A stretch of 4,969 bases of DNA from a virus. Taxonomy: Duplodnaviria > Heunggongvirae > Uroviricota > Caudoviricetes. Below, one piece after another: positions 955 to 4,969 of the stretch. How positions within the stretch are numbered: position 1 is the first letter of the stretch; the number at the start of each line of letters is the position of its first letter. Below the pieces are notes generated by a model. It did no database searches. It was not told the DNA's origin and was given only the letters and a program-made list of their open reading frames with translations. A program made the translations under genes and the position numbers. The stretch is from IMG/VR virus record IMGVR_UViG_2690316166_000007; one strand, 5' to 3'.

Positions 955-1068
955 ACCATCCTTAGAGTTAAATAATTGAATGTCCACTCCAGCAGTTGGT
1001 TGTATATATTTTGAAAGCTCTTTCTTGAACTTGTTAATATATTTATCTTTGTTTTCTTTGTTGGTCAT
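955..1068 (-). CDS. Visible N-terminal 38 codons of an AT-rich gene of unknown function that runs leftward into the N runs; true length and stop unknown
   Basis: ATG at 1068-1066 on the - strand opens a frame (MTNKENKDKYINKFKKELSKYIQPTAGVDIQLFNSKDG) that stays open to the gap edge. The 51-nt island and the left flank are also open in this frame if gap lengths are taken literally, but gap lengths in scaffolds are estimates. Lys/Asn-rich, low-GC composition contrasts with the nin genes to the right. No obvious Shine-Dalgarno sequence. Confidence 0.4.
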
Positions 1069-1155
1069 TGGTTAGATCCATAGTTCTGGCTGTGATTAGG
1101 TGAAAGTATACAAGGTTTTTAAAGCGAAGATCACTGTTTTGGCTTCAAGATAGTT

Positions 1156-1184
1156 TTGATTTATCGTAATCAATCCGCCATAAT
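1156..1184 (+). promoter_or_regulatory. Candidate sigma70 promoter reading rightward into the nin operon
   Basis: TTGATT (1156-1161), 17-bp spacer, CATAAT (1179-1184); 4/6 and 5/6 matches to consensus. Lies in the divergent intergenic region about 50 bp upstream of the small-ORF start. Sequence match only. Confidence 0.3.
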
Positions 1185-1221
1185 CCTCTCATCGGAGCCT
1201 GAACAACTCCGGTGACTTCTG

Positions 1222-1245
1222 CGCATTTAAGGGGACTTAAATGCG
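1222..1245. promoter_or_regulatory. Perfect 10-bp inverted repeat with 4-nt loop (CGCATTTAAG-GGGA-CTTAAATGCG); candidate operator or RNA hairpin covering the small-ORF start codon
   Basis: Arms 1222-1231 and 1236-1245 are exact reverse complements. The right arm contains the ATG at 1241-1243 and the loop contains the purine-rich candidate RBS. No U-tract follows on either strand, so it is not a typical intrinsic terminator. Confidence 0.35.
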
Positions 1246-1336
1246 ACCACAATCTGAACTCATCACCTTGTCACAGATGCAGAAATGCACCTGCGATTTT
1301 CTGCATTCTGCGGTTTCCGTTAGGGAGGCCGTATGA
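1241..1336 (+). CDS. ylcH: Small ORF (31 aa, MRPQSELITLSQMQKCTCDFLHSAVSVREAV), positional equivalent of DLP12 ylcH; stop overlaps the ybcN start (ATGA)
   Basis: ATG at 1241 preceded by AAGGGGA 5 nt upstream; in-frame TAA immediately upstream limits the ORF to 31 codons. TGA at 1334-1336 overlaps the ybcN ATG at 1333-1335. Assigned by position; I do not remember the ylcH sequence. Below the length cutoff of the supplied ORF track. Confidence 0.4.
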   Translation: MRPQSELITLSQMQKCTCDFLHSAVSVREAV

Positions 1337-1788
1337 CTCTGCCAGTAGACGGCATCAAACTCCATCGCGGTAACTTCGCGGCCATCGGCCAGCAGATTCA
1401 GCCATTGCTGGATGCCGGGCAATGCTTACGCCTGCAGGTTAAGCCGTGGCGCGAGAAGCGCAGCCTGTCGCAGAACGCGCTCAGCCACATGTGGTACACG
1501 GAGATCAGCGAATATCTCATCGCCCGCGGCAAGACCTTCGCTACGCCTGAGTGGGTCAAAGACGCGATGAAGCACACCTATCTCGGCTACGAAAGCAAAG
1601 ACCGTGTAGATGTCGTGTCCGGCGAGGTCACCACCGTCCAATCCCTCCGCCATACGTCAGAGCTGGAAACCGGCGAGATGTACATCTTCCTGTGCAAAGT
1701 CGAAGCCTGGGCGATGAATATCGGCTGCCACCTGACAATTCCGCAGAGCTGTGAATACCAGCAGCTGCGCGATAAGCAGGAGGCGTAA
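1333..1788 (+). CDS. ybcN: YbcN, DLP12-type prophage protein (151 aa); recalled as an Orf/NinB-family recombination mediator with reported DNA base-flipping activity
   Basis: ORF 1333..1788 from the track; strong SD GGGAGG (1323-1328) 4 nt before the ATG. Protein matches my recollection of E. coli K-12 YbcN, and the downstream gene order ninE-ybcO-rusA-ylcG-quuD-nmpC matches DLP12. Confidence 0.85.
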   Translation: MTLPVDGIKLHRGNFAAIGQQIQPLLDAGQCLRLQVKPWREKRSLSQNALSHMWYTEISEYLIARGKTFATPEWVKDAMKHTYLGYESKDRVDVVSGEVTTVQSLRHTSELETGEMYIFLCKVEAWAMNIGCHLTIPQSCEYQQLRDKQEA

Positions 1789-1958
1789 TGGCTACACCGC
1801 TTATTCGTGTCATGAACGGGCACATCTACAGAGTATCAAATCGTCGTAAGCGTAAGCCTGAGCTGAAGCCATCCGAAATACCAACACTGCTCGGATATAC
1901 CGCTAGCCTGGTTGATAAAAAATGGTTGCGACTGGCAGCAAGGAGGAATCATGGCTGA
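1788..1958 (+). CDS. ninE: NinE-family small prophage protein (56 aa, [56 protein letters not shown])
   Basis: ATG at 1788 overlaps the ybcN stop (TAATG); SD AGGAGG at 1778-1783. Hand translation runs to TGA at 1956-1958. Basic, nin-region position. Too short for the ORF track. Confidence 0.8.
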   Translation: MATPLIRVMNGHIYRVSNRRKRKPELKPSEIPTLLGYTASLVDKKWLRLAARRNHG

Positions 1959-2241
1959 TTTGAGAAAAGCAGCGCGTGGTCGGGAATGCCAGGTAAGAAT
2001 CCCTGGCGTATGTAATGGCAATCCTGAAACGTCAGTACTGGCACATATCCGGCTGGCTGGATTGTGCGGTACCGGTATCAAACCGCCAGACCTGATTGCC
2101 ACCATTGCATGTTCTGCCTGTCACGACGAAATCGACCGCCGCACATATTTTGTCGATGCTGAGTATGCAAAAGAATGCGCGCTGGAAGGTATGGCGAGAA
2201 CGCAGGTTATCTGGCTGAAAGAGGGGGTTATTAAGGCGTGA
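1951..2241 (+). CDS. ybcO: YbcO (DUF1364), Cys-rich putative zinc-binding nuclease of the prophage nin region (96 aa)
   Basis: Track ORF 1912..2241 begins at a TTG. I prefer the ATG at 1951 ([14 protein letters not shown]...) because AGGAGG at 1941-1946 sits 4 nt upstream and the ATG overlaps the ninE stop (ATGGCTGA). Conserved Cys/His positions; matches recalled K-12 YbcO. Confidence 0.85.
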
Positions 2242-2600
2242 ATACCTACAGCATCACATTACCCTGGCCTCCGAGCAATAACCGCTATTACCGCCATAAT
2301 CGCGGGCGCACACACATCAGCGCAGAAGGGCAGGCATACCGCGATAACGTCACCCGAATCATTAAAAACGCAATGCTGGATATCGGCCTGGCTATGCCAG
2401 TGAAAATCCGTATTGAGTGCCACATGCCGGATCGCCGTCGCCGTGACCTGGATAATCTGCAAAAAGCCGCTTTTGACGCACTCACCAAAGCAGGTTTCTG
2501 GCTGGATGATGCTCAGGTCGTTGATTACCGCGTTGTGAAGATGCCTGTTACCAAAGGTGGGAGGCTGGAACTGACCATCACCGAAATGGGGAATGAATGA
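2238..2600 (+). CDS. rusA: RusA Holliday-junction resolvase (endodeoxyribonuclease RusA, 120 aa)
   Basis: Track ORF 2238..2600 with GTG start overlapping the ybcO stop (GTGA). Protein [24 protein letters not shown]...[25 protein letters not shown]... matches recalled E. coli RusA, including the acidic catalytic region. Confidence 0.9.
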
Positions 2601-2737
2601 TGTTTGAGTTTTATATGGCAGAACTTCTTCGCCACCGCTGGGGGCATCTGCGCTTATATCGTTTCCCCGGTTCTGTTTTGACCGATTACCGAATACTGAA
2701 GAATTACGCCAAAACCCTGACAGGAGCAGGAGTATGA
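2597..2737 (+). CDS. ylcG: YlcG-like small prophage protein (46 aa, [46 protein letters not shown])
   Basis: ATG at 2597 overlaps the rusA stop (ATGA). Hand translation ends at TGA 2735-2737. Position matches ylcG of DLP12; too short for the ORF track. Confidence 0.6.
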
Positions 2738-2822
2738 AGTCAGAGATAACAATCAACTAATACTGTTTTGTTGATTTTTGCTTGTAATTGGCGTTCTGGT
2801 CTGATTTTTGTGGAGTAAGTTG

Positions 2823-3206
2823 ATGCGTGATATTCAGATGGTTCTTGAGCGTTGGGGAGCGTGGGCGGCTAATAATCATGAAGATGTGACCTGGTCGTCC
2901 ATTGCCGCCGGTTTTAAGGGATTAATTACTTCAAAAGTAAAATCTCGCCCGCAATGTTGTGACGATGACGCGATGATTATTTGCGGGTGCATGGCCCGTC
3001 TGAAAAAGAACAACAGCGATTTGCACGATTTATTAGTAGATTATTATGTAGTCGGTATGACATTCATGTCACTGGCAGGTAAGCATTGCTGCTCTGATGG
3101 TTATATCGGGAAAAGGTTACAGAAGGCTGAGGGCATAATTGAAGGGATGTTAATGGCATTAGATATCCGGTTAGAGATGGATATCGTTGTTAATAACTCT
3201 AATTAA
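2823..3206 (+). CDS. quuD: Late-gene antiterminator Q of a lambdoid prophage (127 aa), DLP12 QuuD-type
   Basis: Track ORF 2808..3206 starts at a TTG. I prefer the ATG at 2823 ([22 protein letters not shown]...) with GGAG at 2812-2815, 7 nt upstream. Cys-rich segments ([21 protein letters not shown]). Position is immediately before the porin moron and terminator structures. Confidence 0.85.
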
Positions 3207-3239
3207 TATGCCAATTGTTTACTAAAAATTATTAAAAAT

Positions 3240-3257
3240 GGGGCGTTGCAACGCCCC
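3240..3257 (-). terminator. GC-rich perfect hairpin (GGGGCG-TTGCAA-CGCCCC) flanked by A/T runs; candidate intrinsic terminator for leftward (porin) transcription
   Basis: The 18-nt palindrome is preceded on + by ATTAAAAAT, so on the - strand the hairpin is followed by AUUUUUAAU. On the + strand it is followed by CAAAAAUAAA, which is not a U-tract. Confidence 0.4.
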
Positions 3258-3323
3258 CAAAAATAAAGGGTAATATATAACAGAAGGTTTATATAGTTAG
3301 AAGCAAGGTTGTGCTCCTAAAGG

Positions 3324-3379
3324 AAGTGGCTTGAGGGAGCCACTTATATGTTGGGGAGGCAAAGCCTCCCGCAACATAT
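3324..3379. terminator. Two adjacent stem-loops just downstream of the porin stop; candidate bidirectional terminator (tR'-like for the + strand, porin terminator for the - strand)
   Basis: Hairpin A: 3324-3331 / 3338-3345 (AAGTGGCT / AGCCACTT, 6-nt loop). Hairpin B: 3346-3360 / 3364-3379 (about 15 bp, one bulged G, AAA loop), followed on + by CUUUUAG. On the - strand the same structures follow the porin TAA (3397-3395) and precede CCUUUAGG. Confidence 0.45.
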
Positions 3380-3394
3380 CTTTTAGTAATCAAA

Positions 3395-4599
3395 TTAGAA
3401 CTGGTAAACCATACCTACAGCAACGATATCATCGGTAGCAACGCCAGATGCTTTCGTGAAATCGCTCTTATCAATCAGGTTGATTTTGTAATCAACAAAA
3501 GTGGACATATTTTTGTTGAAGTAATAGGTTGCACCTACATCAATATATTCAACCAGGTCCTGATCACCCCACGCACCCAAGTCTTTTCCTTTAGATTGCA
3601 GGTAAGCAACGGACGGACGCAGACCGAAGTCGAACTGATATTGTGCAACTACTTCGAAGTTTTGTGCTTTGTTGGCAATATGGTTATTACCAAAAACAGT
3701 CATGTTCTGGGTTTCAGAATAGGTGGTAGCCAGATAGATGTTGTTCGCATCATATTTCAGACCAGCTGCCCATACTTCAGCATTTTGACCAGATGCATTC
3801 AGGCTGTTGTTACCGTAGATAACCTGATTATTAGTGCGGTCAGATTTAGCATAGGTTGCACCTACACCGAATCCTTCATACTCATAAGTAGTGGAGAAAC
3901 CGAAACCATCACCATTAGCTTCAGTTACGTCAGTGCGGTCATTTTTACCCTGATACTGAGCAGCAAAGTTCAGACCATCAACCAGACCAAAGAAGTCGTT
4001 GTTACGATAAGTTGCAACACCAGTGGTGCGACCAGTCATGAACACATCTGTTTGAGTCCAAGTGTCACCACCGAATTCTGGCAGGACGTCAGTCCACGCA
4101 CCGATGTCGTATGCTACACCGTAGTTACGGCCGTAATCGATGGAGCCGTAGTCACCGAATTTCAGGCCAGCGAAGGCAAGACGGGTTTTATCTTTGGANN
4201 NNNNNNNNNNNNNNNNNNNNNNNNNNNNNNNNNNNNNNNNNNNNNNNNNNNNNNNNNNNNNNNNNNNNNGTAGTCACCGAATTTCAGGCCAGCGAAGGCA
4301 AGACGGGTTTTATCTTTGGAGGAACCTTGAGATTCAGCGCGGTTGCCTTTGAATTCATATTCCCACTGACCGAAACCAGTCAGTTGATCGTTGATTTGGG
4401 TTTCACCTTTGAAGCCAAGACGGGCATAAGTAGTATCACCATCATCTGCATCATTAGAGGAGAAGTAGTGCTTAGCATTAACTTTCCCGTACAGATCCAG
4501 CTTGTTACTGTCTTTATTATAAATTTCAGCTGCCTGAGCAGACATCGCCATCAGTACTGATGCAGCTACAGCAGAAATTGCCACTGTTAATTTTTTCAT
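3395..4599 (-). CDS. nmpC: General outer-membrane porin of the OmpC/OmpD/NmpC family (prophage moron); reading frame split in this assembly by an N gap plus a duplicated 51-mer
   Basis: ATG at 4599-4597 gives [23 protein letters not shown] / [17 protein letters not shown]..., a signal peptide with AQA cleavage motif. The C-terminal part (track ORF 3395..4045) ends ...VGMVYQF with the terminal Phe typical of beta-barrel OMPs. Removing the 122-nt gap-plus-duplicate joins ...[14 protein letters not shown] to [27 protein letters not shown]... in frame, giving 361 codons including the stop. Confidence 0.8.
4148..4320. repeat. Perfect 51-bp direct repeat (4148-4198 and 4270-4320) abutting both edges of a 71-nt N run (4199-4269); most likely an unmerged contig-end overlap
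   Basis: GTAGTCACCGAATTTCAGGCCAGCGAAGGCAAGACGGGTTTTATCTTTGGA occurs twice, ending exactly at the gap start and beginning exactly at the gap end. 51 + 71 = 122 nt, not a multiple of 3, which accounts for the apparent frameshift in the porin. Confidence 0.85.
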
Positions 4600-4969
4600 C
4601 GTGAGCCCTTTTTTTGAACTATTATTAAAAAATGATGTCACTGCGCGATAAATATTCATCTAATCAATGTGATTATTTCAAGATGTAAGTTTTGGTTTCT
4701 CGTTTGATTTGTGAAGTAGATCTCTATTTTTATCTGAACTTTTTTCTATCGAATCCTATTCATGGCTCTTGGCTGAATAAAAATAAATCTATTAGCCAAT
4801 TTATATTAACGGCTGTTATTTATAAGTGCTCTATAATTTGAAGGTTCAATTTAAACCGGCTAAAAATAACACTGGAAATTATTTGTTGGTTATTTGTTGG
4901 GATTTGCTTATGTATTTGTAGTGGTGTTTTCAATACTCGGTAGCATTCTCGCAAATATCATTTAGTGGT
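4600..4969 (-). promoter_or_regulatory. AT-rich upstream region of the porin gene; promoter and regulator sites presumably here but not confidently located
   Basis: About 370 bp with no ORF of meaningful length. Contains an exact tandem 11-bp repeat TTATTTGTTGG x2 (4879-4900) and a TATAAT hexamer on the + strand (4832-4837) without a convincing -35. Confidence 0.3.

Follow-up and report, generated by a model that had tools for sequence, protein, structure and literature searches.

The window analyzed here, the whole 4,969-nt stretch of DNA, very probably carries a complete NmpC/Lc-type general-diffusion porin gene that is a moron of a DLP12-like lambdoid prophage of Escherichia coli, and the break in the reading frame of this gene is an assembly artefact. 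The identification draws directly on sequence identity, synteny, the lack of IS5, identity of the promoter, and an in-frame ORF that appears once the gap within the gene is collapsed. The gene occupies positions 3395–4599 on the minus strand, with its ATG on the reverse complement of 4597–4599 and its stop codon on the reverse complement of 3395–3397, and is convergent with quuD (2823–3206, plus strand). These coordinates agree with the preliminary description, which had placed the porin at 3395–4599 and the end of quuD at 3206. The product of quuD is a Q-type late antiterminator (PF06530, 179 bits), and WP_001204791.1 is found at the matching position in the closed genome of E. coli CV839-06. 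Nin-region genes of a DLP12-like prophage (ybcN, ninE, ybcO, rusA, and ylcG) occupy 1333–2737 on the plus strand. A convergent intergenic spacer of 188 nt (3207–3394) separates quuD from the porin gene, and an AT-rich upstream regulatory region containing PnmpC lies at 4600–4969 (minus strand). GC content is 53% in the nin genes, 44% in the porin gene, and 30% in the region upstream of it.

Gap structure and reading frame

As written, the porin span is 1205 nt, two more than a multiple of three, and is not an open frame. The gap in the gene had been noted previously, but the exact 51-bp direct duplicate at its edges had been missed. The gap is a run of 71 Ns (4199–4269) between a left copy of the duplicate at 4148–4198, which covers codons 94–110, and a right copy at 4270–4320. 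To the left of the Ns is the 3' segment of the gene, comprising codons 94–360 and the stop codon (3395–4198, minus strand), and to the right is the 5' segment with codons 1–110 (4270–4599, minus strand). When the Ns and one duplicate are deleted (122 nt in all), a continuous ORF of 1083 nt results, encoding 360 amino acids. The porin CDS is likewise 1083 nt in the closed genomes of B1-56, CV839-06, and A7 and in phage PhiR34_1, and the collapsed protein is identical at 360 of 360 residues to WP_000737275.1 from CV839-06. The earlier claim of an intact porin therefore holds for the collapsed sequence, where neither a frameshift nor a premature stop was found and the protein is 100% identical to those of closed genomes, but it cannot be read directly from the 1205-nt span.

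Comparison to closed genomes places the fault in the scaffold. The collapsed locus (1641 nt) gives a single ungapped alignment to closed genomes at 99.5% identity, which is the best match to the whole collapsed locus among complete E. coli genomes (none reaches 100%), and each of the best 25 genome matches is one ungapped piece. The collapsed junction occurs verbatim in B1-56 over window positions 4143–4464, with all eight B1-56 mismatches falling outside this interval, and in K-12 over 4055–4551, which identifies the gap as a scaffolding artefact. The 51-mer is single-copy in every closed relative examined (K-12, B1-56, CV839-06, and A7). Elsewhere in the window, the segment separating the two other N runs (463–513) likewise measures exactly 51 nt, and those N runs, of 355 and 441 nt, correspond to true distances of 319 and 350 nt in the IS1-free relative A7. 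They are too long by 36 and 91 nt, so the N-run lengths are estimates and not real sequence lengths. An exact k-mer-sized repeat at gap edges is a typical sign of unmerged contig ends from de Bruijn assemblers, and we infer that an assembly with k = 51 lies behind the duplicate. The true distance at the 71-N gap is most likely −51 nt, with the contig ends overlapping. The simplest reading of the frame break is a draft-assembly or scaffolding artefact, in which ends overlapping by 51 bp were joined by 71 Ns and left unmerged.

The N run might instead hide real sequence, such as a 122-bp tandem duplication that shifts the frame after codon 110 and leaves a pseudogene by a route unlike that of IS5. 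This reading takes the out-of-frame span and the direct repeat on both sides of the Ns at face value, and the 71 bases under the Ns could, formally, carry a lesion in this strain. We regard it as highly improbable because the 51-mer is single in all closed relatives examined, the best 25 genome matches are ungapped, the other N runs of the window have demonstrably wrong lengths and flank another 51-nt segment, and the repeat at the gap edges has the k-mer-like form generally expected of unmerged contig ends. With the frame break read as an artefact, the practical recommendation is to collapse the gap and to avoid annotating the gene as a pseudogene.

Porin family and relatives

The collapsed protein matches the Pfam Porin_1 profile (PF00267) over its full length (profile positions 1–337 of 337), with a score of 510.6 bits against a cut-off of 23.7. 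Matches to the solved porin structures of OmpK37, OmpC, PhoE, and OmpF have E values of 1e-137 to 1e-108, including 2e-137 for OmpK37. The mature chains of the PDB porins align from query residue 24, which indicates a Sec signal peptide of 23 residues (codons 1–23, 4531–4599), with cleavage between AQA and AEIY and a mature start of AEIYNK. A PEFGGD motif begins at residue 133 and, by analogy with solved porins, probably represents the loop-3, or constriction-loop, motif. The C-terminus reads AVGMVYQF and is followed by the stop codon, so that the terminal Phe, a sorting signal of porins, is present. By homology, the protein is predicted to form a 16-stranded trimeric beta-barrel with pore activity. 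The chromosomal porins OmpC, OmpF, PhoE, OmpK36, and OmpK37 share the Porin_1 fold family, the PEFGGD motif, and the C-terminal Phe, but chromosomal porins are found at the ompC, ompF, and phoE loci, whereas the window porin is in a prophage.

Automated names could suggest that this gene is the chromosomal housekeeping ompC. The protein scores 518 bits against the NCBIfam OmpC subfamily model (cut-off 484) and falls below the cut-offs of the NCBIfam PhoE and OmpF equivalog models, and identical proteins carry the PGAP/RefSeq name "porin OmpC". However, the OmpC model is a subfamily and not an equivalog model, and the RefSeq label reflects that model rather than orthology to chromosomal ompC. 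The protein is also 90% identical to NmpC and Lc, and every relative examined has the gene in a prophage, flanked by quuD and essD. Chromosomal ompC was rejected outright on synteny, as the gene has a prophage location and not that of the ompC locus, and we give this identity no credence.

Alignment to named references after collapse bears out the nmpC-type assignment that had been proposed. The closest well-known system is NmpC of the K-12 cryptic prophage DLP12 (qsr'), for which the reference is a reconstructed sequence with IS5 removed; 329 of 365 residues (90%) are identical to the window porin, and the first 148 residues are the same. K-12 NmpC is 365 amino acids long compared to 360 here, and the two differ by substitutions and two short deletions in three clusters, at about residues 181–188, 215–233, and 263–267. 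We assume that these three variable stretches are surface loops. The K-12 DLP12 locus has the same order (ybcN-ninE-ybcO-rusA-ylcG-quuD), followed by the porin on the opposite strand. The Lc porin (protein 2) of lambdoid phage PA-2 (GenBank J02580) is 90.1% identical over its full length and represents a different allele. The PA-2 gene is a lysogenic-conversion gene, and Blasband et al. 1986 is among the references of PMC11677980. NmpC of P7 is 82% identical to the window porin, and the only matches from Salmonella phages are 63–65% identical. A protein named "OmpD" in the plaque-forming temperate coliphages PhiR34_1 and PhiR68_2 (PV340559 and PV340576) is 100% identical to the window porin. 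These phages and the genomes encoding WP_000737275.1 have a Q-porin-S-R-Rz-Bor arrangement, and their porin gene differs from that of the window at a few synonymous sites within the 5' third. A literature search returned nothing directly usable on the PhiR/ECOR phage set.

Nucleotide comparisons revealed a mosaic allele. Positions 3395–4049 are identical to the allele of CV839-06 and B1-56, and from 4055 onward, through the 5' third and the promoter, the window has the K-12 haplotype. All differences between alleles in the 5' third are synonymous. This pattern suggests recombination between prophage porin alleles. It could also arise from a scaffold chimera, in which the 3' two-thirds of one nmpC-type gene were joined to the 5' third and promoter of a second copy from elsewhere in that genome. 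Several such prophage porins are present in many E. coli, with up to five matching places per genome and two nmpC genes in CFT073, and alleles hardly differ in the 5' third, where an assembly would naturally break. As a chimera would have it, the K-12 haplotype is found to the right of the gap and the CV839-06 allele at 3395–4049. The switch at 4055, however, falls within the left contig, 143 nt from the gap, so the haplotype is continuous across the junction, which argues against a chimera. We consider a chimera unlikely, and even in that case each parent copy would be an ordinary porin gene. Beyond the reading of the gene as a recombinant but otherwise typical allele, there is a slim chance that either the combination of a K-12-like 5' third with WP_000737275-type variable regions gives a phenotype of its own in permeability or in receptor specificity for phages or colicins, or the Ns hide an inactivating duplication of 122 bp. 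If true, either would amount to strain-level variation on a well-known theme.

Absence of IS5 and frequency of the intact gene

In K-12, nmpC carries IS5, whereas the window porin has neither IS5 nor a CTAA target at that site. No IS5 ends were identified anywhere in the window with up to three mismatches allowed. The 188-nt spacer between quuD and the porin aligns base for base with K-12 and CV839-06, and the spacer and the 3' end of the porin gene are colinear with K-12 up to the exact point of the K-12 IS5 insertion. At this site (window 3448–3453), the window has ACGAAA and K-12 has ACTAAA. The CTAA that is missing here is the target tetranucleotide of IS5 (PMC11677980). These alignments support two earlier observations, namely that no insertion sequence lies between the end of quuD (3206) and the porin stop (3395), and that the 3' end of the gene runs uninterrupted through the terminal YQF.

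The rarity of the intact form that the preliminary description implied was not borne out. Of 5426 complete E. coli genomes, 2463 contain at least 80% of the locus, a count that may include K-12-type copies split by IS5 because pieces less than ~1.3 kb apart were joined. The K-12 nmpC::IS5 junction is found in 295 of the 5426 genomes (about 5%). Among the matches listed, one is a full-length match to this junction and comes from ER1709, a laboratory derivative of K-12. The porin protein family occurs in 42 phage records. Taken against each other, the frequencies of the locus and of the IS5 junction indicate that an intact NmpC-type porin is the norm and that K-12 is the exception.

Prophage context

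Window positions 955–3400 are 100% identical to CV839-06. The Q side of the porin lies within the window (quuD on the plus strand, the porin on the minus strand), and the window ends before the lysis genes. Holin, lysozyme, and Rz genes are found about 570–590 bp beyond the porin start codon in CV839-06, A7, and PhiR34_1, and PhiR34_1, a viable phage with an identical porin protein, has the order Q-porin-S-R-Rz. The placement proposed earlier, between Q and the expected lysis cassette and convergent to Q, is thus matched by quuD in the window on one side and by the lysis genes of closed relatives and PhiR34_1 on the other.

The left end of the window contains additional features. A terminal inverted repeat of IS1 occupies positions 1–31 as its reverse complement (the same as CV839-06 L003 4202–4232). 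It is followed at 32–107 by a match to CV839-06 at the 3' end of the replication-protein-P gene region (L003 3428–3503), so an IS1 end abuts the P gene in the window. The IS1 of CV839-06 sits about 700 bp further right than this IS1 end. Between 108 and 954, the two N runs cover two small minus-strand hypothetical genes seen in A7; these runs and the 51-nt island between them are the signature of a short-read scaffold. On the lysis side, two relatives differ in layout. The rrrD lysozyme gene downstream of the porin in CV839-06, the closest of the closed relatives, is split by an IS3-family element (L003 9312–11145), which makes that prophage lysis-defective, though its porin is intact. In B1-56 (L001 7943–8342), which has an identical porin, genes for tRNA-Ile, tRNA-Arg, tRNA-Arg, and a SASA-family esterase lie between the porin and holin genes, and the layout of its late region differs from that of DLP12.

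Promoter and spacer structure

Upstream of the porin ATG, the sequence is the same as in K-12 for 290 nt (from −1 to about −290). In K-12, PnmpC is a sigma-70 promoter within −199 to −1 for which 5' RACE has given the start site; its activity in the lysogen is strong enough to drive the IS5 transposase gene (PMC11677980). CFT073 expresses RNA and protein from its nmpC copies, preferentially at 37°C, and an association between NmpC and heat resistance has been described for strain AW1.7 (PMC12890032). A simple promoter scan of 3207–3394 and 4600–4969 flagged neither PnmpC nor a late promoter, so the case for the promoter rests on identity to K-12 and the published mapping.

The spacer between quuD and the porin is highly structured, with three hairpins (3240–3257, 3324–3346, and 3346–3379) and z scores of −6.6 (plus strand) and −9.4 (minus strand). 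On the minus (porin) strand, a terminator-like GC hairpin (3257–3240) precedes a T run. On the plus strand, CTTTT follows the hairpin at 3346–3379, which could serve as a late terminator responsive to Q. Judged from the upstream identity to K-12 with its mapped PnmpC and from the minus-strand hairpin, autonomous expression of the porin, as had been suggested, appears well supported. The literature yielded no directly usable account of the position of the DLP12 late promoter relative to nmpC. The 434B hybrid carries the DLP12 late region (PMC9119081). The occurrence of the Q-porin arrangement in viable phages and in this hybrid indicates that late transcription in antisense past the porin works there.

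Implications

In this strain, the gene's own sigma-70 promoter, PnmpC, would drive transcription of the porin in the lysogen, and the 23-residue signal peptide would direct its export. The porin would then assemble in the outer membrane as a beta-barrel like those of OmpC, OmpF, and PhoE and act as a general diffusion pore. Q-dependent late transcription would pass the porin gene in antisense to reach the lysis genes. The gene is an apparently intact prophage porin, real and correctly interpreted, and it is ordinary and already known. NmpC/Lc prophage porins have long been known to alter outer-membrane permeability and sensitivity to phages and colicins. The finding has little importance beyond annotation. 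Natural E. coli commonly carry intact copies of such porins, and their expression has been documented.
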